From: an uncultured Candidatus Kuenenia sp.
GTDB taxonomy: Bacteria > Planctomycetota > Planctomycetia > Pirellulales > UBA1268
DNA: 64,000 bases
Direction: 5' to 3'
Assembly (NCBI GenBank): GCA_964453165.1
Contig: CAYVNX010000001.1
Location: 27,284 to 91,283 of the forward strand
Of the stretch, positions 18,001-46,008 are shown one piece after another; within the stretch, counting starts at the first letter, position 1, and every line of letters starts with the position of its first letter. A program made the translations under genes and the position numbers. The notes under the pieces are model-generated. The model searched no databases and was not told where the DNA came from. It worked only from the letters and a program-made list of their open reading frames with translations.

Positions 18001-18347
18001 TGGACATCCAGGACCTGATCGCGTTCAACACGGGCGGCGCCTTTGGGACGAGCCAGGCGGATGCCGCCTGGTGGCAGAGCGACTTCAACGACGACGGCCG
18101 CGTGAACGTGTTCGACCTGATGGCGCTCGTCAGTTCTGGTCTTTATGCCGCGGGTACCTACCAAGCACAGAACGCCGGTCCGACCACCGAGTCAGCGGCA
18201 GCGTCGAGCCGTTTTGCACTCGCCGCGGACCCCGCGTCGGCGCGAGGGCTCGATCCATTTACCTGGGCCGCTCTCGCCATTCAGACCGAGGCCGAGGCGG
18301 CTCCAACCCGGAAGTCGAACCGCTTCCGGCTGCTCGGCCAGGGTTGA
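1..18347 (+). CDS. Giant (>6,100 aa) secreted repeat/adhesin-like exoprotein; 5' end probably outside the window
   Basis: Single uninterrupted frame 33..18347 in the track (GTG at 33). The frame stays open back to nt 3, so the true start is likely upstream. Ala/Gly/Val/Thr-rich beta-helix-like N-terminal part, internal 123-aa tandem repeats, and C-terminal RTX-like, Calx-beta, cadherin-like, PATR and dockerin-like modules. All overlapping ORFs in other frames are Arg/Pro/Gly-rich artefacts. Confidence 0.85.
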   Translation, partial: SVTAAFTTATVAEILSATVTAGGSVTVAATDSPEVTSDAGAGSLAVGYGSSAAAALAAGVILAETTFANTVAARIGVVAGSSVLPRVVAQGSGSVNVLAHSAATVTSTSVAVAFSASFSPSFLAAAAAVAYAGAKASSMSAITAEIGGGTVSGADVSVAASTGHTITNTVGVGAGVLSVVGGSTGWSTAEATVADTVIARIGAAAVTARTGDVAVAARSGNVLSTRSVATSLALAIGGGGTAGHASSKDTSTVTAEIGTSATLAALTGTVRVTVGGLPGTAGHGSVTAVSDGGSGGLITVGRVEATAEHAQTRRATVRDGVNLAQVGGLTVEAGSRPSVKAHSFAVDIGGIMVQVNTSQATVGGSARAMIGSDAMLAGTVLVSAEGGATFDVLQDGGAGGIVGAGDNDAKATTRMAVEAALGDRALAASGRRVERLAVTARHADVSTVAAENGTVVGAGVAQVSAAITDLTSTKATLGRVGSADGRTPLEVGMLEVTASRSHDYAATADSWFGALFGGSVPAATFTTKDADGVTADARAVVAAGASVSASGTVTLGSAHAIRRVTSGYSARVRGGGLVSEAGDALTGGSTVTIDAGSRVVIGDDARIVSGTGPASPGGIAILPTAHVEIRDSVGTWSGGAFSFGSLAARVTTVMTTSVEAGRDVTLDTRGTLDIGTASNVATTARVQGASSGATASVNFDATADTSLTQTVAFGPNAALAADGAMRITAGEDPAGRAARGVVVDAVVDGETNGAVTFITVVAKAKLTNTSTVSFGTGAVASSGGDMRIVAETGRPTVTRDGAVTYHDIQGFFENLFGGENVKRYDPAAEETNTSKVTLAGRFAAGGQGTVSLTIPATFASGTLAGTTGTGLVSAATASFDDAFDPQAFVRANFGDSADLLAAAVPATGKAVRISPIVAGGGSLTVRGDVLEGQATLGGSRAHVAIRNESPHHLLLDTLQIAAATGGAVRLERTSGAEVAAPAGWGLTRDATSPTITIDQTWAEPLAGSVYGPAVFLTKAAGNPRGDIEITNARGSLGVIGTIAARSFDAHVPNGAMVIYVKGAVHAAGPPATSQPAAELAASDAALAGDALTLVRNYGPFYRNRDLTETETLTAASTASPTGGTAIDAQQVAIFADTINVNGEMLIGTAATADRSVTVPLGLQAELETYRAEFQAGRKSDPLYRIPAEKLGAKAAGDVKLGVTFDARTGELLVDPADIAAGTRLSLVGKIINTNASGGAIRVRTDGGGVTIENLTTLPLVTQAISTPGTGFSTTVQIVDMLQPEATRQTVYQSQDGDLRVRVGRATDDLLEAAAGDVLADTSATVYRPVANARWTSTRQRSIWFGFGYPIGDSGWSYGAENDITTGQVEVRPADPAVTRSITMQYAFEPDRADYTVTDSVRADHPIAVSFSGAASAGVTITSSGGVVLRDAIESTSVKVWAGGGIGTVPGGGEITADSVNLLGVSLGTEDRPLPIATDTLRAQAWTGGVWLAVNREDPARPVTLDTVATYAGGPVRIVAGGDVRAGQSSFVLGGGRIALVSEQGSLGTATAPLTTRVTPLAATASLPPLRLDATAAGNISLSHVDGSDTPAADDLLVGTVTATAGDVVVRAVGSLYDAHTWTVDPDRQAKVEKAVHDLGLADIDAVVAEGVAAFQAVVKSRYMQYHALLADGVVFNGRLQLRADAFDRWATRAAIALELPAGVMPTNQEVLDHAAATHLEAVGYFMRLIGPDWNSLPAFRSFDPAWVYQPSAAQVEQVRGDLGLDAISLLRQVGVDMGQATRPWDPAVRVGGAVNVRGTNVTLVSAAGTVGRTSPPVTIRRDDVLYDRLTPEQVFEMELAGQRGDATKVAAGFEFRVLRPLVVAVTGRLDAEGLRGVAAAQPTGTLRIGRVAAAAGTVGIAAQDSIENAAGGTGINTHAVDPVAVTTTLFSRTGSIGSAESPITVTGGAVTAGVLAADGTVHVASPFAVIPEAPPKPQPGAPGEPQPPRTQQLDRLDARAGDTLTVMLGGTTPGDGTGKHDQLVVTGPAVLDGTIAVRLSPGYVPQPGDRFTVLTYQSVVGRFTAGDGLFGLSGSLWFEVEQTGDATTPGAVTLVARSLFVPGINAAIDFADGIVDAAAVRRDIGRFLNGGYFGFDLEVSFSGGFTYRELEIEGAVTLRYDRNPGRTNFIEASVAGRTAVGETVELVGDFLVSIGLAEGTVTSLAVLGQNIDLDVAVGGVTLGARSGRVGLLASDAGVAFEASAGIRATLTSDVSLYASEIFVSFNATDVDYTRQMFALGEVTYTFGDLAADTFRVGVTGGELIAGGAVRASGNFALEGRSQQVALADGALVTADLLTIGGARLGGFLGTAAGTSAATGVSIVDAHVAAAIVTERGGAGRRWLTLEGRGEAASLVGFGGVSGSLTDTAVTLNLPASDGSLVDYRPGATVLTIDTGLPPGVTFSADGTRGRIIRASGTAALAIDGAVTVTGTVGISIEGTSVVAVGSGIRGRLGAATAATFLEVENGSFGLLATGRETAFELQGGLSAALAGFATVGADRVFAQYTSAQTSIAAGRRLDTGTAAYTFAEAIASGTTLFAVEGFTATVADFVSLSGNVGFRSDGDGFIAVGAGMEATLAGGDLANLSVSDGTFGLRVDATGTAFELTAQDFAFQIANLPAARADTVFLRYTSANETVAQQDTLSVGGIDYVFREAIAPDTVAFSFTGFETAVSDVLSVSGDLGFARVGSDLIAVGENLDASLAAGPVRVTATDGAFGLVVSGSGVAFELQGGFDAAIAGLFGASAERTVVQYASAGASITAGRRLAIGAAGYTFSTAIAAGTVGFSVEGFRASASGFTPISGSLGFAVAGQDLVAVGAQMSAGYLDPVHGGILHEEGRFGLVSNASGTAFELGAGRLRIKVADLSDVRSGSTFTQFSTAGITIGTGRTVAAGGLEYTFDRGIHPGTTVFSVTGFLATVKDFVSLAGDVGFSLVDGRILAVGESVAATLAAGPASLTARGRLGLRVVDDAVTLELTGTSLAGSLPSIGAVAAERVFVQYVSPLASVAAGETFRVGQATYTFAKAISPGTVAFDLEGFSADLFGVLSVGGDIGFAYRPKELLISAYATDVNARFAIGDDVEASLAHASFDIRFGSQLLFALQGEARVKIKDMIDETVAVRIQPDYTTLTLDDEFRSQVDAAVMSFGAALPDLLFGPTVNTGAPMVGLQLQGAAFGFAVATALDSDRFWVAAEARATAGRFLGALGLGEATISDATVLFNTTTVIGGDGQSVDWSATPVTIVPVPLGQAAAADPITFDMRGPTLAARGDIELEFEYGARGPTVAGGFSLESSRRDVTLVGGDTVDVTMLALGVHDASGWFDFSTPSLRRGIEVDGVDLAFGLFQERAPAAGQTARQWSLLDASVGAAAVVGVEGVTLAARDVSMGYIHLPADGSSIDTSTPIAYDEDLAFSMTADRLRPGARSLFAFAGDFDVDVRGVVQFQDAVDIQVELDTLEVYDPATRGHTTEDVVTLTFAALDQDLFAGRQFEDRRVGLELPDVDVAAMIAFGPQTGSLWVAVDAGTTGASVVGIPHVSLAAEAIDLRINTADYRGRTIDFARKPLEVPTGLAIRAGDASGSIWGDGQSTLITIDGTRGDELGVVEIAAAVLEVDDFLYARGDYAFRIGRHTDGLVVTGLEPGGASTALDGPFAVLSLAATDVDVFAGYRGPDSAGTSPFTDTGVREGAIGIFARDVDLGYAVFTDVQHVFDSLKVNLPAAGLVGLEDMVSALPTDAADATRDWLRENGLAEGITASLTDVTIIRNGGLRFVGAQVAPLLAAIDFQASFPGGQGLPAGYTLATPGGSILLDTADAVQTVGASVGNATLMVNGFLEVSGSLAFTVGGRIGGAKADPGVVGLIPGVAATGMTHDLYSIEIGGSGLRGFAGVTVPAIRGVPGFETPVRIGYEIEDATFGFAIMPSLSVSGITVPGLPAVLPTYIAGKVTAGAARAVGLESWLGRLPGVLHPSFEDVSIEINTGLIPLLTATLPALQALAQAALPMPALDLQGEAFSAGGPGLEIATGDPARPVVLGFREEVYAIDIGYFDASLFSFFDAVNGADGLIPRPEAAGVDLVNLGILAASTAVAAPSLQVAGAATFAKRGVEQVTLVDGRQIEVMSLGFSMVDVRGFQGAGAYWGRNPATGRIDGSVVDEAAIGVAIDDLDLGAVFMVRMPTGLSPVPAVYVAASAELESARLVGIEELANAELSNLELQVNLAASTDFKVVDLGKSSHAVVHPDGSLSTAAGYAVAGPRSAPAVILDFAEPLLATRGTIDVNLLDVVVLEGDFLLRAGGSSILLYVDGTGRIGPADTPWITSDVEAFLRMDSRGVVSRVVLDTDPIRIGSAVEIVPGSLNLLANTTGEDASFTIPEELRRPGQPDAITVSAIPPGKTEAAGYVVASGGGRVRLTDAFTFEGGFDLRLERERSTFVFDATLDLPVLEPLRIAGSLEYLPGGDGGLFGSVAAAPVGGDIISVPGITLGGEMLLEVNTSPVVRQVRSIRRAGENDPDGDGYVLRDVPADLIRLGGAGRLEAGGVSFVGTQSLTFEPGKIRLDLASGVDVGFGSLGVAGEAWLLHGEGRPTTFVFEGTARGSLGAVSGIDGTVLVNTDAGDVTLTSGTTVAANTPFDVRLTAGIDIGLFKLDVGGRLFKQGDLWEIRVDRGLGRLNFFDVASLAFDAGGFYRSNGAYLFEPVGTISLGGKPVGAEGTLRLSLGRDAAGVTSFKGDLWGTTRYDIGIARGDGPAFRGTLAFGPQGASFATSVELPIIGWWTLGPFDWRWRGDGGIRPDPVIGRLADGVLTLSSGDAAERYGDAGGQWYGTLLNESFQIEAVRNDLGRPIPGQVRVRSLGYEQMFTGVTTIRAAGGQGNDTFDVGADVDVVLELNGGPGSDVFLIGSFVPGSRFDGGVGTGYDDLRLAGTVGDYRLTAIDATTLVALAESPAATAAATGIDVFRFDDGSLGSPAVPTDTRALAGPIVNESVFFDLRTYENGVLVAELDIAPGPGEATTTTDSRGVFNLPDSLLSAYDQNRDGLVDFRDGMIVVGTYSDNGVGTVISAIDSITGADLGIPLVGLPGHSASLVSTLKYTTLLRWRPDQTIAGVPVTPELIETVLSRILADVPSTFTDDNFSPYIALSSSDSAEVAKAVETLRFSYTHLGNVLAVRALLDELGLDFGRGRDVWGYDPDPARADRVEVIAFSAYLNAIATRFGERPLDVLHRSPVAATFDPLNQSHVRAVLVEMLSNYPTKRLFELEPAVLAEFLADPRGVAAAFPTLEAQSRVEAAIERHFGTLLDNVSEGLVLTQKALVRRVVDGAALSDLAPALGTQLLVPSVAGLKRLLVEELAESLVEDGWQNRDDFLAAYYPVFYQPKPVEKASQPVVGLIGLAVAGGDAAGGSLVTLGEGDEIVRLQLDYKDSLAPLLAPDYGLAVRYRLGGTAREGIDYSIVGNGGIPIASIRAGESTGSLSLRVTPEALAAGDRYIQIELLSADSGMRVDDTRAVVTIALGVAGLPPGEAPTGGRSSFVPHALVTATGAGPAIIRAPAGGRNVVLRGENGRADLFVVGDQQSSGVPFVENFRAEDGDRIWIAAGDLVAHRRKNLVTDPTKRAAAREVLAARYGEELVSGFEPARLEELIAAEIEATSLQPFVITELNTYGGFIFDVVGRNPVAMVSDYSVSAGDKAWASLSMNPAGGTAFATVITLSSMSVAEDIAAGTRVGEVFVQSPVAAGASQVTLAAGDGDDDNTLFEVVRDDSGSSPRSFLVARGPFDYETDPRLSVRVRATGADGVAFEQVFVLQVGDVPEQVIVEVAASESVVLDALLWSRDTLVVRGGGRVILDSPNRHTGGVVVEAGELVVRDPAGLGSGPLAVRGGARVVFDVGSDLVALAALDLAEGALIDVGLGRLTIAAGGYDATDLRAWISTARNGGAWDGPGITSAAVATTPNRAIGHRVFADGSVIVGFAAIGDATMDGRVDIQDLIAFNTGGAFGTSQADAAWWQSDFNDDGRVNVFDLMALVSSGLYAAGTYQAQNAGPTTESAAASSRFALAADPASARGLDPFTWAALAIQTEAEAAPTRKSNRFRLLGQG
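5980..6300 (+). other. Internal module DRLDARAGDTLTV...HDQLVVTGPAVLDGTIAVRLSPGYVPQPGDRFTVLTYQSVVGRF inside the giant ORF, preceded by a Pro-rich linker
   Basis: Translated motif seen directly. From memory, this pattern (DQL.VTG...L.GTL.V.L..G..P..GD.F.IL) resembles modules near the C-terminal ends of large PATR/autotransporter-like exoproteins. The Pro-rich linker PEAPPKPQPGAPGEPQPP lies at about 5905-5975. Confidence 0.35.
7150..9420 (+). repeat. Intragenic tandem repeats of 123 aa (369 nt): 5 clear units plus degenerate flanking units
   Basis: Anchor F/L-G-L codons start at 7524, 7893, 8262, 8631 and 8997 (spacing 369, 369, 369, 366 nt). Each unit carries FEL(Q/T)G ... (Q/R)Y(T/A/V)S ... 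Y(T/V)F..AI..GT..F...GF...V.DF.S(L/V)SG..GF. Degenerate copies sit near 7150 (LTLEG) and 9400 (FALQGE). Confidence 0.8.
14679..14790 (+). other. RTX-like (hemolysin-type Ca-binding) GGxGxD motifs in the giant ORF
   Basis: GGQGNDTFDVG and GGPGSDVFLIG are separated by about 10 residues. An EF-hand/dockerin-like DQNRDGLVDFRDG lies further downstream near 15170. Confidence 0.5.
16266..16605 (+). other. Calx-beta-like domain in the giant ORF
   Basis: LVTLGEGDEIVRLQLDY...YRLGGTAREGIDYSIVGNGGIPIASIRAGESTGSLSLRVTPEA...DRYIQIELLSADSGMRVDDTRAVVTIAL. This matches the Calx-beta pattern (GTA..G.DY ... F..GE....I.I....D...E..E.F.V.L). Confidence 0.65.
17181..17493 (+). other. Cadherin-like domain in the giant ORF
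   Basis: SVAEDIAAGTRVGEVFV...LAAGDGDDDNTLFEV...LVARGPFDYETDPRLSVRVRATGADGVAFEQVFVLQVGDVPE. This is the typical cadherin-repeat pattern (V.E....G..VG......D.D.......F......G.L......DYE......L.V.A.D..G......F.I.V.DV.E). Confidence 0.65.
17563..17715 (+). other. Autotransporter-associated beta-strand (PATR)-like repeats in the giant ORF
   Basis: LVVRGGGRVILDSPNRHTGGVVVEAGELVVRDPAGLGSGPLAVRGGARVVF (pattern G.G.L.L...N.YTGGT.V..G.L.V). Confidence 0.6.
17975..18140 (+). other. Dockerin-like double Ca-binding repeat near the C-terminus of the giant ORF
   Basis: GDATMDGRVDIQDLIAFNTGG and DFNDDGRVNVFDLMALVSSG form two D.(N/D)(D/G)GRV...DL segments about 30 residues apart. Confidence 0.6.
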
Positions 18348-34925: not shown

Positions 34926-35681
34926 CTATCCAAGGCCCTCGAAGAGCGCCGAGCCGATCCGGACGATGGTCGCTCCTTCCAGGATGGCGGCTTCGAAGTC
35001 GCCACTCATTCCCATCGACAACTCAGCGAGGTGGGATGGCTCCGGCAAATTCGGGACCAGTCGGTCGCGGAGTTCCCGTAGCCGGGCGAAGTCCCTCCGG
35101 GCGTCGGAGTGGGGCGCATCCGGGTGGCCCGCCATGCCCATCAGCCCTCGCAGCCTGACCTGAGTGGATCGCGCCGCGGCCGCGACGAGCGCCGGCACAT
35201 CGGCCTCGGCGGCGCCCGAGCGGCTCGGGTCGCTCGTGAGGTTGACCTCGATGAGCAGGTCGCATGGCGCAAGCCCTTGCCGCCCACCCTCGATCTCGAT
35301 GGCCTCGAGCAGCCGCAGGCTGTCGAGCGTCTCCAGCATGGCCGTCAGCGGGAGCGTGCGGCGGACCTTGTTCCGCTGCAGATGTCCAATCAGGTGCCAA
35401 CTGGGCGGAGGAGTCCAGGCGGCAAGAGCGGCCGACTTCTCCCAGATCGCCTGCGGCCGGCTCTCGGCCAGCTCGCGGCAGCCGGCGGCCAGCACGGCGG
35501 CCGTCGTGGCCGCATCGACGTATTTGGTCACCGCCACAAGCACGACCTCGGCGGGATCCCGGCCGGCCTGGCGGCAGGCCGCTGCCATTCGGTCACGGAC
35601 GGCAGCAACGTTCGCGAGCACCGGCCCGCATACCCGCGGGTCGGCGGTCACTGGTCCGGATGAGTTGTCAGGACCAGTCAC
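34926..35681 (-). CDS. yggS: YggS-family pyridoxal-phosphate homeostasis protein (start uncertain: GTG 35681 overlapping the upstream stop, or GTG 35651)
   Basis: VLVAVTKY (PLP Lys), HLIGHLQRNK, LRGLMGMA, LSMGMSGDFEAAILEGATIVRIGSALF. The 489-aa track ORF is an artefactual N-terminal extension overlapping the upstream gene. Confidence 0.85.
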   Translation of the reverse strand: MTGPDNSSGPVTADPRVCGPVLANVAAVRDRMAAACRQAGRDPAEVVLVAVTKYVDAATTAAVLAAGCRELAESRPQAIWEKSAALAAWTPPPSWHLIGHLQRNKVRRTLPLTAMLETLDSLRLLEAIEIEGGRQGLAPCDLLIEVNLTSDPSRSGAAEADVPALVAAAARSTQVRLRGLMGMAGHPDAPHSDARRDFARLRELRDRLVPNLPEPSHLAELSMGMSGDFEAAILEGATIVRIGSALFEGLG

Positions 35682-37288
35682 TGGATCTCGAGGGTGCGTT
35701 TGACTTCGCCCTTCCGCTTGATGTGGCCGAGGAGGAACTCGCAGGCCACGTTGCAGCCGAGCAGCGTGCGGTTTCGCGGGGCGTCGAGCGAGCGATACAC
35801 CAGCCACTGCTCGAGGCCGGCCTGCACGCGGAAACCGGCCGCCTGATGGGGCCCGAGGTTCTGTCGGGTGTCGGCCACCGTCAACTGACGCCAGGTCAGC
35901 GGCCGACCGATCCGGGCTGGCTCGAGGTCGAGCCAGAGCGGGGCATACAGCCGGCGACCGGGCGAGTCCTGCGCGAGCCGGAGGTTCCCGGCCGTCGCGG
36001 TGAAACCCCCGCGTACCGGCACCCGCCATTCCTGAAGCGCGAGCGGACAGGCCATGAATCTCACGGCAGCGTCGCGGATAACGATCTCGCGGGTCTCGTT
36101 CGCCGCCACGGCCTCGAGGCCCGCTGCCAGCGGCAGGGAGGAGGCGTATTTCAGCCAGCCGGTGTTCGGGTCGGAATCGGCAGCGGTCAACGCCGGTGGA
36201 GCGGACGTGGTCACGGCGTCGGCCAGCAGCAGCACCCGGTCCCGGGGCAAGAGGACGAGACTCCGCTCGAACTGCCGGCCTCCGGGCAGCGCGGCGGTCA
36301 GTTCGAGATAGCAGGCCTTCGCACCCGGCTCCCAACAGGCCACGCTCCACGGGCCCTCGGGATCCAGTCGCTCGCCGTCGACCGAGAGACTCCACTCCCA
36401 GTCACCCTCGGCAAGCATCCGGTCTCCGGTCGCGATCTCGAGCCGTGGCACGGTCTGCCGGTAGTCACAGAGAACCCGAATGGCCCGCGCATCCCAGCCG
36501 GTGCGCAGGATGGCGACAGCTGCCTCAGGGTCGTTCAGATGGAGCCGGAGGCACCGGGCAGCCGGTTTGGACCCTCGCCCCGCAGCCCGGAGCATCTTGA
36601 CGGTGCGGGCTCGGCGGCCTTCCAGCGTGGCAACCGCCGCGAGCAGCGGGGCCGTGAAGGGAAGGGGCATCAGGCCTGCGCCCTCGATCTGGCGGCCGTG
36701 CCGGCCGAGCAGGCGAACGGACGCGGTCGCAGCCTCCCGCCACCGCCGTTCAGTCGGCCCGCCCCAGATCGCGGCTCCGGTCGCCTCGGCCAACTCGCGA
36801 CAGGTCGTCCAGCGAACGACCCGCCGCACCATGTCCCCACCGCTTGCGACGTTTACGACTCCGCCGGGCGAGACGAGCCGATCGATTTCGGCTGTGAGCG
36901 CGTCGGTAGCCGTGGCTTCAAGGCAGCGGCAGGCCTCGATGTCGGCGAACAGGCGGGCGAGGGTGAGCAAGAACCGGGCGGAGCTGGTGTCGCCCCGCGC
37001 GAGGAACTCCTGGGCAACGCGAGCTTCCTTCACGAGCCGTTCCAACAGGCCTCCCGCCGAGCCGCCGGCGCGACGGGCCCGGGCCATCCACCCCAGGGCC
37101 CAGGCCGCTCCCTCCGCGGCGAGCCAGCGATCCCCAGGACATCCGGATCCGACGTCGTCGAGGCAGTCGGAAATGGCGGCCTCCACGAACCGGGCCCGGT
37201 GGGGGTTGCCGGCGCCGTCCTTCACCTGGCCGGCCAGCCGCACGAGCCGGTCGCGACAGGCGGGCGTCTCAGTCCATTCGGCGATCAT
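35678..37288 (-). CDS. Hypothetical protein, possibly heparinase II/III-like at the C-terminus (start uncertain: ATG 37288 or 37495)
   Basis: Protein-like composition begins at MIAEWTETPACRDRLV. The 130 aa upstream in the track ORF are Arg/Pro-rich and would overlap the divergent gene start. The C-terminal segment ...GRQFERSLVLLPRDRVLLLADAV... weakly recalls heparinase II/III-type beta-sandwich domains (unverified). Confidence 0.5.
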   Translation of the reverse strand: MIAEWTETPACRDRLVRLAGQVKDGAGNPHRARFVEAAISDCLDDVGSGCPGDRWLAAEGAAWALGWMARARRAGGSAGGLLERLVKEARVAQEFLARGDTSSARFLLTLARLFADIEACRCLEATATDALTAEIDRLVSPGGVVNVASGGDMVRRVVRWTTCRELAEATGAAIWGGPTERRWREAATASVRLLGRHGRQIEGAGLMPLPFTAPLLAAVATLEGRRARTVKMLRAAGRGSKPAARCLRLHLNDPEAAVAILRTGWDARAIRVLCDYRQTVPRLEIATGDRMLAEGDWEWSLSVDGERLDPEGPWSVACWEPGAKACYLELTAALPGGRQFERSLVLLPRDRVLLLADAVTTSAPPALTAADSDPNTGWLKYASSLPLAAGLEAVAANETREIVIRDAAVRFMACPLALQEWRVPVRGGFTATAGNLRLAQDSPGRRLYAPLWLDLEPARIGRPLTWRQLTVADTRQNLGPHQAAGFRVQAGLEQWLVYRSLDAPRNRTLLGCNVACEFLLGHIKRKGEVKRTLEIQ

Positions 37289-37676
37289 GCTGATCCGACG
37301 GGCCGACTGGGTGCGGCGCACCCGCGGCGGTGTGGGGGAGTCCGCAGGAGCGTTCGCCCCATGAGGCTCCCGCAACGGCGGTGCTGCAGGTTGGGAGGCT
37401 GCGTCGCCCTCCTCAGTCCGGCGGACCGGAGGCCGCCGCTTCCCGTTGCGGCTGGCGTGGGACGAATCCTGGGGGCCGCGGGTCTCGGTAGGCATGCTTG
37501 GGTGGCGGGTGTTGTGGAAGGAAGTGGCCGAGCCCGTGGTGCGGGTCCGCCGGGCGGAGATGGCGCGGGAACCCCCGCGGCGGTATCGTACCGGAGGCGG
37601 GGTGCGGCATCCACGAACCGCGGGCCGCAGCCTGTCCCCGTCCAGCTGAGTTTGTCCCCCGGGAGGATCACGAGCC

Positions 37677-38411
37677 ATGCCCAGCCCCGCTGCTCGCCCC
37701 TGGTGGTTTCCGTTCGCCGGGAACGCCGTGACGGTTGCCGCCGTGGCGATCGCCCTGCCGCCGGTCTCGCGGGCGGAGCCCCCTGTCGCCGTCGACCCTG
37801 CGCCGCCGGTCGATGCCCACCCCGACCTCCGGCGGCTCTCGCCCGATCATGCCATCTGGATCGACCCCGTCCGCCGTCAGGTCGTCGTCGGGGGCGTGGT
37901 CGCGCTCGCGGAAGGGCCGATCGAGGTCTTCGCCTGTCCCGAGCGAACCAAGGAGCACGAGGCGGTGGTGGCGACCCACTGCCCCGCGCGGTTGCTGCAT
38001 GCCGGTCTCCTGGCGATCGGCCTGGAGCCGGGGAATCCTGTCTCGTTTCACCCTGAGTACGCAGCGGCCCGAGGACCAGCGGTCGCGATTCGAGTCCGCT
38101 GGCTCGACGCGGCGGGCAAGGCCCAGGAGTCCGCCGCCCAGGAATGGGTTCGCAACACGAAGACGGGCCGGCACCTCGAGGCCGAGTGGGTGTTTGCCGG
38201 AAGCGGCTTCTGGCGTGACCCTGCCGACGGCGCTGAGCACTACCAGGCCGACGGCGGCGACATGATCTGCGTCTCGAATTTTCCCACGGCGTTGCTCGAC
38301 CTTCCGCTTGAAAGCAGCGAGTCCAACGAGGCGTTGCTGTTCGAAGTCTTTGCCGGCCGGGTGCCGGCCCGCGGCACGGACGTGGAACTCGTGCTTTCTG
38401 CCGCCGAGTGA
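37677..38411 (+). CDS. Secreted hypothetical protein (YdjY-like domain suspected)
   Basis: N-terminal hydrophobic segment AVTVAAVAIALPPVSRA. I associate the motif EVFACPERTKEHEAVVATHCPARLLHAGLLAIGLEPG with YdjY-domain proteins common in PVC genomes; this is not verifiable here. Confidence 0.55.
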   Translation: MPSPAARPWWFPFAGNAVTVAAVAIALPPVSRAEPPVAVDPAPPVDAHPDLRRLSPDHAIWIDPVRRQVVVGGVVALAEGPIEVFACPERTKEHEAVVATHCPARLLHAGLLAIGLEPGNPVSFHPEYAAARGPAVAIRVRWLDAAGKAQESAAQEWVRNTKTGRHLEAEWVFAGSGFWRDPADGAEHYQADGGDMICVSNFPTALLDLPLESSESNEALLFEVFAGRVPARGTDVELVLSAAE

Positions 38412-39446: not shown

Positions 39447-39719
39447 ATGGGACAGGCAATCGTCGATCCAGCCGAGCTTCGCCGTTTCGCGGGCAGCCTG
39501 CGGACCTTCAGCGAGGAGGTTCTCGCCCACATGCAGATGGTGCAGCGACAGCTGGCCGCGCTCGGCGCCACCTGGCGGGATCAGGAGCAGCAGAAGTTCG
39601 CCGAGGAGTTCGAGGCCCAGCTCACGACGTTCAAACGATTCGCCGAATCGACCGGCGAGTACGTGCCGTATCTGATTCGGAAGGCGGAGCGGGTCGAGGA
39701 ATACCTGCAGCAGCGGTAG
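39447..39719 (+). CDS. WXG100-like small helical-hairpin protein (W-x-D variant), P1 of the T7SS-like operon
   Basis: 90 aa; GAGGGG 9 nt upstream of the ATG. N-terminus AIVDPAELRRFAGSL parallels the canonical WXG100 I.V.PE.L...A. Central LGATWRDQEQQKFAEEFE lies between two predicted helices. High third-position GC and Lys/Glu/Gln/Phe-rich composition, unlike the antisense ORF. Confidence 0.6.
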   Translation: MGQAIVDPAELRRFAGSLRTFSEEVLAHMQMVQRQLAALGATWRDQEQQKFAEEFEAQLTTFKRFAESTGEYVPYLIRKAERVEEYLQQR

Positions 39720-39765: not shown

Positions 39766-40374
39766 ATGGCCGACCAGGCCGATGTCAAATCGATCGACAC
39801 GCTGGCCTTCGTGCGCACGGCGTTTGCGTCGTTCGCCCATGAAACGGGCCAGGCCCTGGCGGAGATCGAGATTCAGGGACAGCGGGCCGTCGACTGGATC
39901 TGCGTCGATCAGGCCGCCTACTGGAAGACCGAGATCCGCAAGGCCAACGAGGTCGTCAACAAGGCGATCAAGGACCTGGAGCATTGCCGGACGTTCAAGA
40001 AGGTGGGCGATACCACCCCCTCGTGCATCGAGGAGAAGAAGGCCCTGGAGAAGGCCCGCCAGAAGCTCGCCCGGGCCGAGGCCAAGGCGGAGGCCGTGCG
40101 GCGGTGGACGCCGATCGTGCAGCAGCAGTTTCGCGAGACGGGTGTCCGGCTGGTGCGGTTCCGCGACGTGATCGACGTCGATTGCCCCCGGGCGATGGCC
40201 CAACTCGAGAAGATGCTGCGGGCGCTCGACGCCTACCGCCAGCTCTCGTCTCCCACGGGCGGCGCGGAGGGTGGCACTGGCTCGGCGGGGCCGAGCGTGA
40301 CCAGGCAATTGGAGGAGCCACCACCGGCTGCCGCCGGGCAGGCCGGGCCGGTTTCTGGAGGTGCGGCACCATGA
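39766..40374 (+). CDS. Helical protein of unknown function, P2 of the T7SS-like operon
   Basis: 202 aa. Helix-rich, charged (KKALEKARQKLARAEAKAEAVRRW), with a Gly/Pro/Ala-rich C-terminal tail. Its stop overlaps the P3 start (ATGA at 40371-40374). Confidence 0.6.
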   Translation: MADQADVKSIDTLAFVRTAFASFAHETGQALAEIEIQGQRAVDWICVDQAAYWKTEIRKANEVVNKAIKDLEHCRTFKKVGDTTPSCIEEKKALEKARQKLARAEAKAEAVRRWTPIVQQQFRETGVRLVRFRDVIDVDCPRAMAQLEKMLRALDAYRQLSSPTGGAEGGTGSAGPSVTRQLEEPPPAAAGQAGPVSGGAAP

Positions 40375-40607
40375 GAGTCTGTGACCTTTCCAGCGGCGCC
40401 TCGAAACTCGCCAACGCGCTCAAGCAGATGAATCTCAAGTGGGATGCCGCCACCGAGACCTGGAACGACGCGCGGGCAAAAGCCTTCCACAAAGAACATG
40501 TGGAGCCGCTTCTGCCGAGCGTGAAGGAGACGCTCGACGCCCTCGGCCGGCTCGCGGAGGTGCTCGACCGCGCCGCCCGCGACGTGAGTGACAGCGACGG
40601 GGCGTGA
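40371..40607 (+). CDS. Second small WXG100-like helical-hairpin protein (W-x-D variant), P3
   Basis: 78 aa: MRVCDLSSGASKLANALKQMNLKWDAATETWNDARAKAFHKEHVEPLL...LDALGRLAEVLDRAARDV. Central TWND..AKAF sits between two helices. ATG 40371 is translationally coupled to P2. Confidence 0.5.
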   Translation: MRVCDLSSGASKLANALKQMNLKWDAATETWNDARAKAFHKEHVEPLLPSVKETLDALGRLAEVLDRAARDVSDSDGA

Positions 40608-40662
40608 CCCCGGCGGCCCGATCCCTACCCGTTGCCCCCGCCCCATCCTCCGAGGTTTGAGA

Positions 40663-43600
40663 GTGAGTTCGAACGCCCCCGAGAGCGCCGCATCGCCCGC
40701 AGCCACAGCCGAGGCCCGCACCGCGTATCACCCCGACGTGCTGCGGCAGCAGATGGCGATTCTCCGTCGGGAGTCGGCGGCCAGGGCCAAGGCTGAGGCG
40801 GAGATCGCCGCGGCGTACGAAGAGGCTACGACGGCCGCGCAGGCCGCGGCGCAGCGGTCGCTCGCCGCCACCCGGGAGAAGCACGCCGCCGAGATCGAGG
40901 CCACTCGGCGGAAACACGATGACGTGAAGCGGCAGGCGGATGAGTTTCGGGCGGCAGAGCAGAAGAAGCTCGACGAGTTTCGCCAGGCGAAAACCAAGGC
41001 GATCAAGGGGGAGTGTGCCCAGCGGGTCGAAGACCTCAACGAGACCGAAACCTTCGAGCAGATCCGCTTCAAGGAGGTGGTGAAGTCGAAGACGCCAGAG
41101 CCGCAGCAGGCGGCAGCCGCGCTCGACCAGAAGCTCTCGGCCGGGCTTGCCCAACTCCGGGAGGCCGCCACCGCCGCGACCAAACTGCTCGCCTCGTGGG
41201 GCGTGAAGGGAGGCGAGTCCGCGGGAGCCGTTGCCGCGGCCGAGACAAAGGGGCCAGTCGAAGCGATCCTGGCGGCTCGCGATGCGGTGTTGGAGATCAC
41301 CAAGGCGATCAAGGGCGACGATGCGGCCAAGGCGGCGCTCTCGGGGGGTATTCGCGGGCTCTTGAGCGGCAACAAGGCCGAGAAGCGGACGGAACTCGCC
41401 GCCCGGCTCACTGAACTCGAATGCCACCTAGCGCGGGCCAACAGCCTCGAGCCGGCGGCGCGGCAATGGATCGCGGCGAAGAAGGAGGAGCACGCCCGCC
41501 GGCTCGAAACACAATTTCGCGAGGAGGATGCCGCCCGCAAGGCGGCCCTCAAGCAGGCGCTCGCCGCCGCTGCGGCGGCCCGCGACACGGCACTGGCCGA
41601 CCTGGAGGCGAAGGTGGCCGATGGCTCGGCCAAGCTCGCCGCCAAAGTGGGCGACCATCTGCGGGGAGCCGAGGAGAAGTACCCCGCCCGCGTGGCCGCC
41701 CTCGAGGCCGCGCTCGCGGCCGATGTGGATCGGCTCGAGCGGGAACGGGCCGAGCAACTCGCCGCCGCAGAGCGGACGCGGGACGATGCCCTGGCCGCGA
41801 TGACCGCCGCCTGGCGTCAGGCTCGGGAGTCGACGGCCGCGGTCTACGCCGACGCGACGCGGCTCGACGCCGAGGCGTTCAGGCCCTGGGCGGTGCTCGC
41901 CGATCCGACGGTGCCGCTGCCGGTCGACGCTCCACCGGGGCTCCGGTTCGGCGATCTGGCCCTGTCGCTCGAGCGGGTGCCCGGGGGCGTGTCGAACGTC
42001 GAAGAGCTCAACTCCTTCGGGCCGATCACCTGGTCGCAGCCGGCCACGGTCGCCTGGCCGGTCGCAGCCTCGCTCGTGATCAAGACCTCGGCCGGAGAGA
42101 AGGAGACGGCCTCGGCCCTCATCCAGGCCCTGATGCTCAGGATCGCCACCGGCATTCCCGCTGGCCAAAGCCGATTCACGATCATCGACCCGCTCGGCCT
42201 GGGCAAGCAATTTGCGGGCTTCATGCACCTCGCCGACCACGACGAGCTGCTCGTCACCAGTCGGATCTGGACGGAGCCGCAACTGATCGAGCAGAAACTC
42301 GCCGACATCACCGAACAGATGGAGGTGGTGATCCAGAAGTATCTGCGGAACGAATACGAGTCGATCGGTGCCTACAACGCCGATGCCGAAGTGCCGGAGC
42401 CGTACCGATTCGTGGCTGTGGCCAACTTCCCGGCCAACTTCAACGAGACGAGCGCCCGGCGGCTGGCCAGCATCGCCGCCTCGGGGCCGCGGTGCGGGGT
42501 GTATGTGATCGTGTCGATCGACCCCTCGCTTCAGATGCCTTCGGGCTTCAGCCGGGCCGAACTCGAGCAGCACGCGACCGTACTCGAGCTGAAGAACGGC
42601 ACCTTCACCTGGGCCGACCCGGAGTTTTCCAAGTGGCCGCTCGCGGTGGAACAGGCTCCACCCGACGATCTCTTCACCACGATCATCCAGCGGGTGGGGT
42701 CGGCGGCCAAGGCAGCCAAGCGGGTCGTGGTGCCGTTCGACCGCGTGGCCCCGAAGGAGGAGGACTGGTGGCACGGCAGCACGGCCAACGAGGTCATCGC
42801 CCCGCTCGGTCCAGCCGGCGCCAAGAAGCTTCAGTATCTCAAGCTCGGCAAGGGCACCAGCCAGCATCTGCTGATCGCCGGCAAGACGGGCTCCGGTAAA
42901 TCGACCCTGATGCACGCGATGATCACGAGTCTGGCGCTGCAGTACAGCCCCAACGAGATCCAGTTTTATCTGATCGATTTCAAGAAGGGAGTCGAGTTCA
43001 AGCTCTACGACCACTACGCGCTGCCGCATGCGCGGGTGATCGCGATCGAGAGCGAACGAGAGTTCGGCCTGTCGGTGATGGAGCAACTCGATCGCGAACT
43101 CAAGCGGCGCGGTGATCTGTTTCGCGAACTGTCGGTGCAGAACGTGGCCGGCTTCCGCCAGACGGGCCATCCCGATCCGATGCCCCGGATCCTCCTCCTG
43201 ATCGACGAGTTTCAGGAGATCTTCGTCGAGGACGACAAGATCGCCCAGGATGCCTCGCTGATCCTCGACCGACTGGTCCGGCAGGGCCGAGCCTTCGGCA
43301 TCCACGTGCTCCTCGGGTCGCAGACCCTGGGCGGCTCCTACAGCCTGCCACGGGCCACGATGGGGCAGATGGCGGTACGGATCGCACTGCAGTGCAACGA
43401 GGCTGACTCGAGTCTGATTCTCAGCGACGACAACACGGCGGCCCGACTGCTGACCCGGCCGGGCGAGGCGATCTACAACGACGCCAACGGCATGGTGGAG
43501 GGCAATAATCCCTTTCAGGTCGTGTTTCTCACCGACGAGCAGCGGGAGCAGTATCTCGGCGACCTGCGAAAGCTGGCCGACCGGCGGACCGACATTCCCC

Positions 43601-44682
43601 ACCTCCATCGGATCGTATTCGATGGCAACCAGGCAGCTGATCCGGCCCTCAATCCGTTGCTGACGGAGATGCTTGCTTCGGGCACGGTGGGTGGTCGCGA
43701 TCTGGTCGCGCCCCTGGCCTGGCTGGGTGATGCGATCGCGATCAAGGATCCGACGGCGGCGATCTTCCGCCGCCAGGCGGGGGCCAATTTGCTGATCGTG
43801 GGGCAGCGGGAGGACCTCGGCACGAGCCTGTTGGCCCTGTCGATCGTGAGCCTCGCGGCCGAGCACGATCCCCATCCTGGCGGCGGACTCGGCAAGGCCG
43901 CCCGGTTCGTGGTGCTCGAGCCGGCGATCGCCGAGGAGAAGCCCGACCTGATGCTCGCGAATCTGGCCAGCCACCTGCCCCATGAGATGGAGCTCGCCGG
44001 GCGGCTGGGAGTGACCGAGGCGATGGCAGCCCTGGCCGCGGAGGTGAAGCGGCGGCTCGATGAGCAGGTGCTCGACGGCGAGTCGGTCTACCTCGTGATC
44101 CGTGACCTGGGCCGGTTCCGCGAGCTGCGGAAGTCGGAAGGGGATTTCGGCTTCGGCGGTTTCGGCGGCGAAGAGAAGAAGGCCTCGCCGGCCGACAACC
44201 TCCTGAGCGTGCTCCGCGACGGGCCGACGGTGGGCATCCATGTGATCTGCTGGTGCGACTCGCTCATGAACCTCCAGCGGACATTCGACCGCAACGCGAT
44301 CAAGGAGTTCGAACTCCGGGTGCTCTTCCAGATGAGCAGCAACGACTCCAGCACGCTGATCGACAACCCGGCCGCCGGCAAACTCGGCCCGCAGCGCGGG
44401 CTCTTCGTGCACGAGGAGACGGGCACGGTGGAGAAGTTCCGCCCCTACTCGTTTCCCTCGCCCGAGTGGCTCACCACGATCGCGGCCCAGATGCGCGCGC
44501 GGCCCCAGGGCACTCCGGTCGAGCGTCCCCGTCCTGCGGCTGCCGCGTCCGCTCCGCCGACCGACGAGAAGAAGAGCAGCTTCTCGTTCGGCGGGGGCGG
44601 CGACTTCAATTTCACGAAACTCCTCGACGACGGCCCCGACGAGCCGCCCGCTGACGATGGCGCACGCGGATTTCTTGGTTGA
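40663..44682 (+). CDS. FtsK/SpoIIIE-family multi-P-loop ATPase (EccC/EssC-like) with coiled-coil N-terminus and no TM helix, P4
   Basis: GTG 40663 is preceded by GAGG 8 nt upstream (alternatives GTG 40588 or an internal ATG). 40663-41880 is Ala/Glu/Lys/Arg-rich coiled coil. Canonical Walker A GKTGSGKST (42880-42906) and Walker B ILLLIDEFQE (43189-43218). It is flanked by degenerate P-loop-like modules: LVIKTSAGEKETAS / RFVAVANFP / GVYVIVS at approx 42060-42540, and LLIVGQREDLGTS / VYLVIRDLGRF / GIHVICWCDS at approx 43780-44400. No hydrophobic stretch long enough for a TM helix. Confidence 0.85.
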   Translation: MSSNAPESAASPAATAEARTAYHPDVLRQQMAILRRESAARAKAEAEIAAAYEEATTAAQAAAQRSLAATREKHAAEIEATRRKHDDVKRQADEFRAAEQKKLDEFRQAKTKAIKGECAQRVEDLNETETFEQIRFKEVVKSKTPEPQQAAAALDQKLSAGLAQLREAATAATKLLASWGVKGGESAGAVAAAETKGPVEAILAARDAVLEITKAIKGDDAAKAALSGGIRGLLSGNKAEKRTELAARLTELECHLARANSLEPAARQWIAAKKEEHARRLETQFREEDAARKAALKQALAAAAAARDTALADLEAKVADGSAKLAAKVGDHLRGAEEKYPARVAALEAALAADVDRLERERAEQLAAAERTRDDALAAMTAAWRQARESTAAVYADATRLDAEAFRPWAVLADPTVPLPVDAPPGLRFGDLALSLERVPGGVSNVEELNSFGPITWSQPATVAWPVAASLVIKTSAGEKETASALIQALMLRIATGIPAGQSRFTIIDPLGLGKQFAGFMHLADHDELLVTSRIWTEPQLIEQKLADITEQMEVVIQKYLRNEYESIGAYNADAEVPEPYRFVAVANFPANFNETSARRLASIAASGPRCGVYVIVSIDPSLQMPSGFSRAELEQHATVLELKNGTFTWADPEFSKWPLAVEQAPPDDLFTTIIQRVGSAAKAAKRVVVPFDRVAPKEEDWWHGSTANEVIAPLGPAGAKKLQYLKLGKGTSQHLLIAGKTGSGKSTLMHAMITSLALQYSPNEIQFYLIDFKKGVEFKLYDHYALPHARVIAIESEREFGLSVMEQLDRELKRRGDLFRELSVQNVAGFRQTGHPDPMPRILLLIDEFQEIFVEDDKIAQDASLILDRLVRQGRAFGIHVLLGSQTLGGSYSLPRATMGQMAVRIALQCNEADSSLILSDDNTAARLLTRPGEAIYNDANGMVEGNNPFQVVFLTDEQREQYLGDLRKLADRRTDIPHLHRIVFDGNQAADPALNPLLTEMLASGTVGGRDLVAPLAWLGDAIAIKDPTAAIFRRQAGANLLIVGQREDLGTSLLALSIVSLAAEHDPHPGGGLGKAARFVVLEPAIAEEKPDLMLANLASHLPHEMELAGRLGVTEAMAALAAEVKRRLDEQVLDGESVYLVIRDLGRFRELRKSEGDFGFGGFGGEEKKASPADNLLSVLRDGPTVGIHVICWCDSLMNLQRTFDRNAIKEFELRVLFQMSSNDSSTLIDNPAAGKLGPQRGLFVHEETGTVEKFRPYSFPSPEWLTTIAAQMRARPQGTPVERPRPAAAASAPPTDEKKSSFSFGGGGDFNFTKLLDDGPDEPPADDGARGFLG

Positions 44683-44711: not shown

Positions 44712-44815
44712 GGTGCCACCGGACTCGCGTCCGGGGCTTGTATTCGCGGTGACTGTCGCGGCCATACCAGCCCCCGACGCAAGTCGGGGGGCTCCGCGTG
44801 GTGGCGGATCCCGCT
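44712..44815 (-). repeat. REP-like double-hairpin element, copy 2 (minus orientation)
   Basis: The reverse complement aligns with 29533-29630. Hairpins on the plus strand at 44719-44734 (ccggac-tcgc-gtccgg) and 44769-44793 (agcccccgac-gcaa-gtcggggg(g)ct, one bulged G). Read on the minus strand, the element starts approx 75 nt after the htrA stop. Confidence 0.7.
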
Positions 44816-44889: not shown

Positions 44890-46008
44890 TCAGCGGGGGC
44901 GGCGGCCGATCTCGACGGTGAGCATCAGCGGCTTGCCTTCGCGGATGACTTCGATCGGCAGTTCGGCGCCGACCTCGGCCCGGGTGAGCATGAGCACGAG
45001 TTCGGCCGGCGACGAGATCGGCTCGTCGTCGAATCGCACGATCACGTCGCGGGGCCTGATCCCGGCGAGGTCGCCGGGAGCACCCGGCTCGGTCGCCATC
45101 ACGAGCACGCCCCGTGAGCCATCCACCGTGCCCCGGAGCGCCAGGCCGAGGTAGCCCCGCTCCACGTGGCCGAGCCGGAGGATGGCCTCCGCCACTTCCC
45201 GGGCGGTGTTGCTCGGAATGGCAAACCCGATCCCGCGGGCGTCACCGCCGGCGATCGCCGTGGTGATCCCGATGATCCGTCCGTTGACATCGATCAGCGG
45301 TCCCCCTGAGTTGCCCGGGTTGATCGCGGCGTCGGTCTGGAGGAACTCCTGGAAGGGATCGTTCACGACGCCGCGACGGCCCACACCGCTCAGGATGCCG
45401 TAGGTCAGCGTCCGATCCAGGCCGAAGGGGTTTCCGATCGCCCAGACCATCTCGCCAACTTCGACGGTATCGCTGTCGCCCCAGGCCGCTGCCGGAAGGC
45501 CCTCGGCGTCGATCTCCAGCACGGCCAGGTCGGTGCCGGCGTCGGCCCCGACGAGCCGGGCCGGAAACCGGCGGCCATCGGCCAGGGCGACGTTGATCCG
45601 ATCGGCCCGAGAGACGACGTGATAGTTCGTCAGAATCACGCCGTTGGATTCGATGATCACTCCCGAGCCGATCGACTCGTCATTGACACCGCCCGGAGGC
45701 AGGCCGTGCAGGGCCGCGATCTCGTCGGCGAAACTCCGAAGCCGGCGGTCGGCCGTGACGTTGACCACAGCCGGGCCGACCAGCCGGGCCAGCGTGGTGA
45801 AGAGCTTTGCCACCGGCGCCAGCCGCGCGCCGGCCGCGGCGTCGGCAATCGCGGCCAACTCGGCCCGCGTGCGGGCATACTGGATCCGCCCGATGAAGGA
45901 GGGCCAGGCGATCAGGCCGACGAGCACGACGAAGCCGAGAAAGAGCAAGGCTGTCCGCCAGCGTGCGGTGAAGGCCGATGCGGTCTGGTCGAAGTTCGCG
46001 TCGCTCAT
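44890..46008 (-). CDS. htrA: HtrA/DegP-family serine protease with one PDZ domain
   Basis: N-terminal TM/signal ALLFLGFVVLVGLIAW. Catalytic triad contexts TNYHVV, TDLAVLEI, GNSGGPLIDVNGRIIGI. C-terminal PDZ-like region. Confidence 0.9.
   Translation of the reverse strand: MSDANFDQTASAFTARWRTALLFLGFVVLVGLIAWPSFIGRIQYARTRAELAAIADAAAGARLAPVAKLFTTLARLVGPAVVNVTADRRLRSFADEIAALHGLPPGGVNDESIGSGVIIESNGVILTNYHVVSRADRINVALADGRRFPARLVGADAGTDLAVLEIDAEGLPAAAWGDSDTVEVGEMVWAIGNPFGLDRTLTYGILSGVGRRGVVNDPFQEFLQTDAAINPGNSGGPLIDVNGRIIGITTAIAGGDARGIGFAIPSNTAREVAEAILRLGHVERGYLGLALRGTVDGSRGVLVMATEPGAPGDLAGIRPRDVIVRFDDEPISSPAELVLMLTRAEVGAELPIEVIREGKPLMLTVEIGRRPR

Follow-up and report, generated by a model that had tools for sequence, protein, structure and literature searches.

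A W-x-D WXG100 hairpin encoded with a membrane-anchor-less EccC/EssC-like ATPase in a conserved planctomycete cassette

How do EccC/EssC-like ATPases that lack a membrane anchor work with WXG100-fold proteins in Gram-negative-type bacteria? This question is sharpened by a locus on contig CAYVNX010000001.1 of an uncultured Candidatus Kuenenia sp. (assembly GCA_964453165.1; placed in the Pirellulales by GTDB), of which a stretch of 64,000 nucleotides (positions 27,284–91,283; hereafter the window; ~69% G+C) was analysed. Here, four consecutive genes on the same strand encode two small hairpin-like proteins (P1 and P3), a long helical protein (P2) between them and an FtsK/SpoIIIE-type ATPase (Table 1). 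An earlier note on this DNA had drawn attention to the turn of P1 and P3, in which W-x-D stands in place of W-x-G, and to the lack of a C-terminal YxxxD/E export signal. Both features prove to be hallmarks of the clade of the Helicobacter pylori protein HP0062, real but already described. The surrounding toxin-less, phylum-wide and vertically inherited planctomycete cassette, with its unusually long ATPase N-terminus, appears to be undescribed in the searchable literature.

P1 and the HP0062 clade

P1 belongs to the HP0062 clade as a true WXG100 hairpin, with W-x-D fixed in its turn. It matches the Pfam WXG100 family (PF06013) at 31.7 bits (gathering cut-off 27.3; E = 1.9e-7), and TIGR03930 at 30.3 bits, which lies under the stricter cut-off of that model (44.85). 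The AlphaFold2 (AF2) model of P1 has a mean predicted local distance difference test score (pLDDT) of 90, and consists of a first helix (residues 8–40), a loop (residues 41–45; A-T-W-R-D) and a second helix (residues 46–89), as anticipated by the earlier note. All of the top 30 Foldseek matches to this model are WXG100 proteins, with Esx and HP0062 structures at template modelling (TM) scores of 0.7–0.88. The matches from the Protein Data Bank (PDB) include Bacillus anthracis EsxB, Staphylococcus aureus EsxA, Streptococcus agalactiae SAG1039 and GBS1074, Geobacillus EsxA, and HP0062 itself. P1 does not have a hydrophobic N-terminus (maximum Kyte–Doolittle score over 19 residues, 0.56), and its homologues are labelled 'WXG100 family type VII secretion target' or 'YukE' by NCBI and JGI.

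HP0062 (3FX7/2GTS) is also the best match of P1 among PDB sequences, with E = 2.3e-6 from the single sequence and 1.5e-9 from the family profile over residues 1–85; the same profile finds EsxB at E = 3e-7. By Foldseek, P1 and HP0062 share 29% identity at TM scores of 0.81–0.88, and the turn of HP0062 reads S-W-R-D-A. The two proteins further share their length class, an ending of the EE(D)YL type and linkage to an FtsK/SpoIIIE ATPase gene. In the planctomycetes this gene lies 870 nt downstream of P1 within one operon, a linkage kept at all 73 loci. The WRD turn of HP0062 and its linkage to an FtsK/SpoIIIE gene had been stated by 2012, and HP0062 crystallises as a homodimer (PMC3397514). The divergent subfamily suggested by the earlier note thus holds for P1, with its Pfam score above cut-off, predicted hairpin and Esx-like fold; the subfamily is not new, as HP0062 was already known, and membership of P3 is weak.

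The textbook Trp-x-Gly turn of WXG100 proteins is absent from P1, and the Trp is kept in alignment with that of the family. In a phmmer alignment with B. anthracis EsxB, W43 falls on the canonical Trp, D45 on the canonical Gly and F51 on the conserved Phe. At turns and at helix N-caps, Asp is a favoured residue. Since helix 2 of the model starts at residue 46, we infer that D45 replaces Gly as the residue that closes the loop and caps helix 2.

P1 has 2266 homologue clusters. Among 121 close homologues, W43 and D45 are invariant, and a P1-family profile search against 1.8 billion cluster representatives recovered 1417 relatives at E ≤ 1e-3. The turn triplets of a distant set, comprising the best 150 of these representatives (50%-identity clusters), were WRD (103), WQD (29), WKD (5) and other W-x-D (4), so that ~141 of the 150 carry W-x-D and none carries W-x-G. 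When the alignment was extended across phyla with HP0062 itself and with relatives encoded in Isosphaeraceae and on plasmids of Burkholderiales and Helicobacter, residues E10, F14, L18, F21, L39, W43, D45, F51, L76 and Y86 were retained. The Trp is likewise invariant in all 121 P3-family sequences, and the W-x-D motif of the two families is far beyond chance because both W and D are invariant in 121 of 121 homologues of each. The sequences TWRDQ in P1 and TWNDA in P3, neither with the canonical Gly, were read correctly in the earlier note together with their coordinates; the conserved Phe that it placed 7–8 residues after the Trp is present in both proteins, at a spacing of exactly +8 in each (F51 in P1).

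The C-terminus of P1 ends ...EYVPYLIRKAERVEEYLQQR, and its last 17 residues are nearly invariant. P74, L76, R78, K79, A80, Y86 and Q89 do not vary, most other positions are conserved at 90% or more, and L76 and Y86 are invariant across phyla.

P3, a weak relative of the WXG100 family

In P3, W31 and D33 are invariant across the 121 homologues and the residue between them is H, N, D or Q; F(+8), W24, P46 and P49 are also invariant. The protein scores 24.4 bits against Pfam WXG100 over model positions 16–85, which is under the 27.3-bit cut-off, and it also falls under the TIGR cut-off. WXG100 is the sole Pfam family touched, and it is matched at E ≤ 1e-3 by 16 of 37 P3 homologues (best 2.4e-6), again with no other family. 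From these profile matches, P3 is graded as a weak WXG100 relative below threshold.

A convergent or coincidental resemblance, in which only P1 would be a WXG100 protein and P3 an unrelated small helical adaptor, is very unlikely. Sub-threshold scores against Pfam and TIGR would fit such a protein, as would the search with the P3-family profile, which retrieved no match and no Esx protein from the PDB sequences. The invariant P46 and P49 sit within the would-be second helix and would break it. Comparison of the P1 and P3 profiles by hhalign gave only 6% probability, from which homology is not provable, and superposed W-R-D of P1 on W-N-D...F of P3. Furthermore, the Trp is missing from the proteins that take the place of P3 in the Helicobacter and Caballeronia cassettes described below, which fits a remark in the literature that the second small protein is without WxG. 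It would be harder for coincidence to produce matches to a single Pfam family in 16 of 37 members, spanning both helices of the model, with W31 at the same model position as W43 of P1 and with W, D and F(+8) all invariant.

P2, a long helical hairpin

P2 has no Pfam match, and its 630 homologue clusters are all annotated 'hypothetical'. Its AF2 model (pLDDT 81), built from a shallow alignment, consists of helices at residues 2–77 and 85–161 and a disordered tail at residues 165–202. Neither the Pfam scan nor the AF2 model reveals a nuclease domain. Searches of PDB sequences and folds were uninformative, returning only generic coiled coils, BAR domains and chemoreceptor hairpins.

Two invariant cysteines, C74 and C87 (H-C74...P-S-C87), stand on either side of the hairpin tip and may form a disulfide staple or a metal site. 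A C-x(12–17)-C pattern also occurs at the hairpin tip of a P2-like protein on contig L084 and of the 436-residue coiled-coil protein of a Caballeronia cassette, and is absent from the P2 proteins of Isosphaeraceae. The disordered tail is variable except for residues 177–184, S-V-T-R-Q-L-[DE]-E, in which R180 is invariant in 121 sequences; this may be a linear recognition motif. One member of the P2 cluster (P0533) is 280 residues long, exactly the length of P2 and P3 combined, which suggests that in some assemblies the two are fused by read-through or a frameshift at their overlap.

The sequence YWKTE in P2 had been reported as the only YxxxE in the operon and as a possible chance match. The ATPase also contains internal YLRNE and YSPNE, so YWKTE is not the only one. 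As a signal, YWKTE was rejected because the site lies in mid-helix, 53 of 119 scored homologues have His or Phe in place of the Tyr, and such a match has a 24% chance of arising in shuffled sequences.

The ATPase

The Pfam FtsK_SpoIIIE match of the ATPase covers residues 736–913, with partial matches to EccCa, EccCb and EssC; the EssC model is covered only at 804–982. Its best PDB matches are Thermomonospora curvata EccC (4NH0; 118 bits), EccC5 and Bacillus subtilis YukB, with FtsK at 50 bits. The protein has three FtsK-like domains. A regular-expression scan of the 1364 residues found only one Walker A, which lies in the middle domain, with Walker B at residues 869–876; the domains on either side have degenerate loops. 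No transmembrane (TM) helix is predicted (highest Kyte–Doolittle 19-residue window, 1.43), and no FHA domain is matched by Pfam. The N-terminal region of ~400–450 residues is presumed from its composition to be a coiled coil, and is poorly conserved between loci (29–43% identity). Residues 383–1287 are collinear with the ATPase of the Caballeronia cassette (E = 5e-79), and a single central Walker A is common to the ATPases of the Caballeronia and Helicobacter cassettes.

Gene order and distribution

The order and strand of P1, P2, P3 and the ATPase gene are identical in 73 of 73 loci that have all four genes. In a one-genome-per-species scan, 597 of the first 600 pattern matches listed encoded a P1 relative, giving at least 597 stretches. 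The best 80 of these are nearly all labelled Planctomycetota or have Pirellulales-type synteny, and cover Pirellulales, Planctomycetaceae and Isosphaeraceae; one of them lies in the complete genome of Singulisphaera sp. Ch08. Across Planctomycetota, the cassette is a syntenic unit of the chromosome. Isosphaeraceae loci are flanked by unrelated housekeeping genes (kinase, MIOX and BlaI at one locus; TgpA, YchF, Tsp and an epimerase at another), and the conserved unit is taken to be exactly four genes because these flanks differ while the order of the cassette holds.

P1 is the slowest-evolving gene of the cassette, and at each of 25 loci compared its rate is far below that of P3. Mean identity is 81% for P1, 68% for P2, 70% for P3 and 65% for the ATPase, compared with 77% for the neighbouring chlorite-dismutase-family gene. 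No defence, nuclease or immunity genes were found beside the cassette in planctomycete loci (the window and the flanks of distant loci), and no VWA genes beside it in the window. PADLOC returned only generic FtsK/HerA-domain matches to the ATPase (SspH, mad8), and the cassette is therefore not a catalogued defence system.

Several stretches (L002, L017, L018, L049, L064 and others) carry 'Candidatus Kuenenia' or 'Chitinophagaceae' labels together with Pirellulales-type synteny and 77–96% P1 identity. Such labels of metagenome-assembled genomes on Pirellulales-type contigs are probably wrong.

Sister cassettes and fusions

Sister cassettes were located by tblastn on Caballeronia and Helicobacter plasmids. 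On Caballeronia plasmid pSBC2-5, the order is VWA, an 89-residue WXG100 protein, proteins of 436, 113 and 76 residues, a 927-residue FtsK-like ATPase, CARF, VWA, PP2C and a kinase. The 89-residue protein carries W-Q-D, scores 74 bits on the P1 hidden Markov model and ends ...RDYLQS. The plasmid of Helicobacter sp. encodes an 89-residue W-G-D protein, a 340-residue WHH/HNH (colicin-DNase) toxin, a SUKH immunity protein, a 77-residue protein and an 823-residue ATPase. Since the gene order of the sister cassettes equals that of the window, P2 occupies the position of a polymorphic nuclease toxin. The equivalence of P2 with the toxin, and of P3 with the 76- and 77-residue proteins, is positional only; by eye, P3 and these small proteins have the D-x(12)-P spacing in common.

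Fusions are also found. At L083:2816-3604, a 262-residue protein joins P1 (residues 2–87) in frame to P2 (residues 100–260) through a Gly-rich linker; behind it lie a P3 homologue and a coiled-coil N-terminus. At L084:969-1849, a 227-residue protein carries an N-terminal W-R-D WXG100 domain and an uncharacterised C-terminal domain of ~130 residues, followed by an overlapping small open reading frame (ORF), a layout that resembles a polymorphic toxin gene and its immunity partner. This gene adjoins another P1–P2 pair and the end of an ATPase gene; with a G+C content of 44%, the contig comes from a quite different organism. A further protein, P0304, is a tandem double W-R-D hairpin, which is compatible with P1 as an antiparallel homodimeric four-helix bundle. 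The toxin-bearing sister cassettes, together with the fusion of WXG100 to an uncharacterised C-terminal domain, argue for the family as a trafficking device.

Relation to known systems

From computational work, Bell et al. (2024; PMC11090510) described cassettes inserted in type III-A CoCoNuT/TerY-P loci that contain an EssC-like ATPase, in which only D2 of three domains is active and an N-terminal coiled coil replaces the FHA and TM regions, and two WXG100 proteins, one without WxG, with a coiled-coil nuclease between them. As cited there, Anantharaman et al. (2012) treated the cassette as a stand-alone element. The planctomycete cassette is similar in its three FtsK-like domains, sole central Walker A, helical ATPase N-terminus and two small proteins, WXG100-fold P1 and WXG100-like P3, flanking a coiled coil. 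It differs in having no VWA/TerY, CARF, PP2C or kinase flanks, no nuclease domain and no DNA-mimic-like or immunity gene, and in being a chromosomal syntenic unit rather than part of a mobile defence island. In H. pylori, HP0062 and HP0066 form a minimal WxG and FtsK set, termed a 'minimal type VII secretion system', and the HP0062...HP0066 cluster was reported with an HNH/EndoVII nuclease (PMC4978471). In contrast with that cluster, the window has a toxin-less P2, no immunity gene and an ATPase N-terminus ~500 residues longer.

The type VIIb (Bacillota) EsxA/EssC systems, considered together with the homodimeric WXG100 proteins of the sagEsxA kind, share with the cassette the fold of P1 and its N-terminal x-x-D-P-x-E-L-x-x-F, as in S. 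aureus and B. anthracis EsxA/EsxB, and a motor homologous to YukB/EssC. Differences are the W-x-D turn, the ATPase without FHA or TM domains, the lack of EsaA, EssA, EssB and YukD nearby and the diderm host. Similarly, the ESX systems share the WXG100 fold, an EccC-type motor (4NH0 being the best PDB match of the ATPase) and the idea of tail docking; unlike them, the window lacks YxxxD/E, EccB/D/E and MycP, its small genes are not bicistronic neighbours and its ATPase is not membrane-anchored. The cassette fits neither the type VIIa (ESX) nor the type VIIb definition.

The LXG–Lap1–Lap2 systems resemble the cassette in having two WXG100-like hairpins of ~80–100 residues beside a long helical domain, with an EssC-family ATPase. 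To our knowledge, they are the only experimentally studied parallel for two small hairpins with a long helical protein and an EssC-type ATPase, and we know of no TM-less EccC/EssC-like ATPase/WXG100 cassette that has been studied experimentally. In these systems the signal motif is on the small partner and not on the cargo, a role that is proposed here for the P1 tail; correspondingly, in the TelC–LapC1–LapC2 heterotrimer the motif lies on a WXG100-like partner that is not exported (PMC9600955). The cassette differs in having no sequence membership of these families and no FxxxD, and in that its small genes flank the long one.

Export signals

The earlier note was right that Y-x-x-x-[D/E] is missing from P1 and P3: none of the 121 P1-family and none of the 121 P3-family sequences carries it, and P3 is without any Tyr. 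This absence is expected outside the mycobacterial ESX systems and is not itself remarkable. HxxxD/ExxhxxxH, the extended WXG100 pattern of Poulsen et al. (PMC3935865), is found in neither P1 nor P3 nor any P3 homologue, and only 20 of 121 P1-family sequences carry it; F-x-x-x-D was not seen on inspection of P1 and P3. Given its near-invariant last 17 residues (P74–R90), an alternative recognition element in P1 is plausible, and the invariant tail ...RKAERVEEYLQQR is the candidate recognition signal for the cassette.

Proposed mechanism and alternatives

As the leading explanation, it is tentatively proposed that P1, P2, P3 and the ATPase form a trafficking cassette, in which P1 and P3 would escort P2 to the ATPase by means of the P1 tail, by analogy with the LXG–Lap1–Lap2 pre-secretion complexes of type VIIb systems, whose small proteins are escorts. 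Bound along the ~76-residue helices of P2, P1 and P3 would build an elongated bundle with it, an arrangement that the helix lengths permit (2 × ~76 residues in P2, 33 and 44 in P1, and shorter in P3). The P1–P2 fusion at L083 and the W-R-D fusion at L084 also link P1 to a cargo. The tail of P1, rather than a YxxxD/E motif, would then dock the bundle on the ATPase, much as the EsxB tail docks on EccC in ESX systems, and the ATPase would thread or translocate it. P2 may be a toxin-less cargo or stalk, since the sister cassettes hold coiled-coil nuclease toxins and immunity genes at its position.

Several observations weigh against this proposal. No TM helix or signal peptide is predicted in the four cassette proteins, and a Pfam survey of 31.7–50.0 kb of the window and of the regions around distant loci found no type VII membrane component. 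The host is diderm, and passage of any cassette protein across a membrane is hypothetical. P1 may act on its own, as HP0062 is homodimeric, and a P1–P3 heterodimer is unproven because the P2 gene lies between the two and HP0062 is a homodimer. Furthermore, comparison of the P2 family with the Helicobacter WHH toxin and the 436-residue protein of Caballeronia, at their N-termini, gave nothing significant, and the P3 family has no detectable similarity to the 76- and 77-residue proteins on the two plasmids. Neither P1 nor P3 matches the Lap1/Lap2 families (DUF3130, DUF3958), nor does P2 match the LXG family (PF04740), at E ≤ 1. The very strong purifying selection on P1 and the vertical inheritance of the cassette are unusual for toxin-delivery systems, and the P1–P2 fusion at L083, known from one assembled contig, could have arisen in assembly.

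Some of these points would suit a cytoplasmic module rather than a secretion system, in which the hairpins would regulate, or serve as adaptors for, a machine of conflict, stress response, remodelling or unfolding. This reading is less likely than the trafficking proposal but a serious rival. It accommodates the diderm envelope and the lack of a membrane component, TM segments and signal peptides, and for the cassettes with missing TM domains Bell et al. likewise considered that 'a different mechanism appears likely' (PMC11090510). Sister cassettes do lie inside TerY-P/CoCoNuT type III-A defence loci, amid VWA, CARF, PP2C and kinase genes, and P1 is more conserved than neighbouring housekeeping genes, as expected of an intracellular hub. 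Beside the planctomycete cassettes, however, there is no defence, nuclease or immunity gene, the PADLOC matches are generic, and the active domain of the ATPase is nearest to true secretion ATPases (EccC, YukB). W-x-D WXG100 domains also form the N-terminal part of fusions whose C-terminal domains vary, and occur next to a pair of WHH toxin and SUKH immunity protein. Such arrangements are the hallmark of exported polymorphic toxins (PMC3113570).

At the other extreme, the locus could be a classical minimal type VII system, with P1 and P3 as an ESAT-6/CFP-10-like heterodimer that is itself exported and the ATPase as its motor. P1 and P3 match WXG100 and no other Pfam family, both have W-x-D followed by F at +8, and a WxG protein with FtsK has been given this very name (PMC4978471). 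Yet the reading is improbable: P2 lies between P1 and P3 in 73 of 73 loci, unlike in CFP-10/ESAT-6 pairs, the similarity of the P1 and P3 profiles is marginal (6% probability) and P1 evolves far more slowly than P3 (25 of 25 loci). In addition, the nearest solved relative is homodimeric and P0304 is a natural tandem P1–P1 protein; the ATPase does not have the TM helices and FHA/DUF domains of EssC/EccC; and EccB/D/E, MycP, EsaA, EssA, EssB and YukD are all missing nearby (31.7–50.0 kb and distant-locus flanks), as is YxxxD/E. A domesticated housekeeping machine is also considered, with low probability. A membrane-less EccC-like hexamer would deliver P2 to or through the diderm envelope by way of an unlinked partner, along a route not recognised so far, or a toxin exporter would have given rise to a cytoplasmic protein-threading device. 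Domestication is suggested because the cassette is toxin-less and vertically inherited, and because P1 is more conserved than the chlorite-dismutase-family gene, which is presumed to be a housekeeping gene.

The planctomycete cassette is the simplest form seen, with four genes and no toxin, immunity gene or defence-island context, and it is very widespread. It thus offers a clean system for asking whether anything is secreted, what the recognition signal is and whether the small hairpins serve as cargo or, as in the trafficking proposal, as escorts.

Layout of the locus and neighbouring genes

Table 1. Features of the cassette and its surroundings (positions in the window).
Feature	Position	Strand	Description
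Giant ORF	33–18347	+	6104 aa; Ala/Gly/Val/Thr-rich
Upstream gene	35678–37678	-	666 aa; no Pfam family
Upstream gene	37677–38411	+	244 aa; no Pfam family
Chlorite-dismutase-family gene	38436 to ~39300	-	divergent, upstream neighbour of cassette
P1	39447–39719	+	90 aa, ATG...TAG; GAGGGG Shine–Dalgarno-like site 5′ of ATG
P1 turn motif W43-R44-D45	39573–39581	+	T-W-R-D-Q; D replaces canonical G
P1 C-terminal tail P74–R90	39666–39716	+	P-[YF]-L-x-R-K-A-E-R-x-E-E-Y-L-Q-Q-R; candidate docking element
P2	39766–40374	+	202 aa; long helical hairpin with disordered Pro/Ala/Gly-rich tail
P2 tip cysteines C74 and C87	39985–40026		H-C74...P-S-C87
P2 tail motif, residues 177–184	40294–40317		S-V-T-R-Q-L-[DE]-E
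P3	40371–40607	+	78 aa; divergent WXG100-like, W-N-D; ATG overlaps P2 stop as ATGA
P3 turn motif W31-N32-D33	40461–40469	+	T-W-N-D-A; F39 at exactly W+8
ATPase ORF	40588–44682	+	EccC/EssC-like FtsK/SpoIIIE; 1364 aa counted from GTG 40588
ATPase N-terminal region	40720–41940	+	~400–450 aa; presumed coiled coil; A 25%, E 10%, R 9%, L 9%, Lys-rich
Walker A GKTGSGKS, aa 765–772	42880–42903	+	middle ATPase domain; the only one
Terminator-like hairpin	44719–44734	+	37 nt past ATPase stop
HtrA protease gene	44890–46008	-	convergent, downstream neighbour of cassette

P1, P2 and P3 each have a GAGG-type site 8–12 nt 5′ of the ATG. The ORF-finder start of the ATPase, GTG 40588, overlaps P3 by 20 nt; the true start is more likely to be GTG 40663, because GAGG lies 9 nt ahead of it and no ribosome-binding site precedes GTG 40588. 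A promoter scan found none. The terminator-like hairpin is only suggestive of the end of the operon, as the number of hairpins in the region is at chance level. The third-position G+C content (GC3) of the four genes is 0.84–0.86, and this, together with hundreds to thousands of homologues and the kept synteny, rules out chance ORFs in GC-rich DNA. A six-frame search of the window revealed no further P1, P2 or P3 paralogues.

The 666- and 244-residue genes upstream accompany the cassette in most Pirellulales loci and not in Isosphaeraceae, and are probably mere conserved neighbours. Near the start of the window, the giant ORF has an adhesin- or beta-helix-like composition. It has no Pfam match at E ≤ 1e-4, and dockerin-like D-G-R-V-D/N repeats lie close to its C-terminus; judging from these features, its product is probably a giant surface protein.

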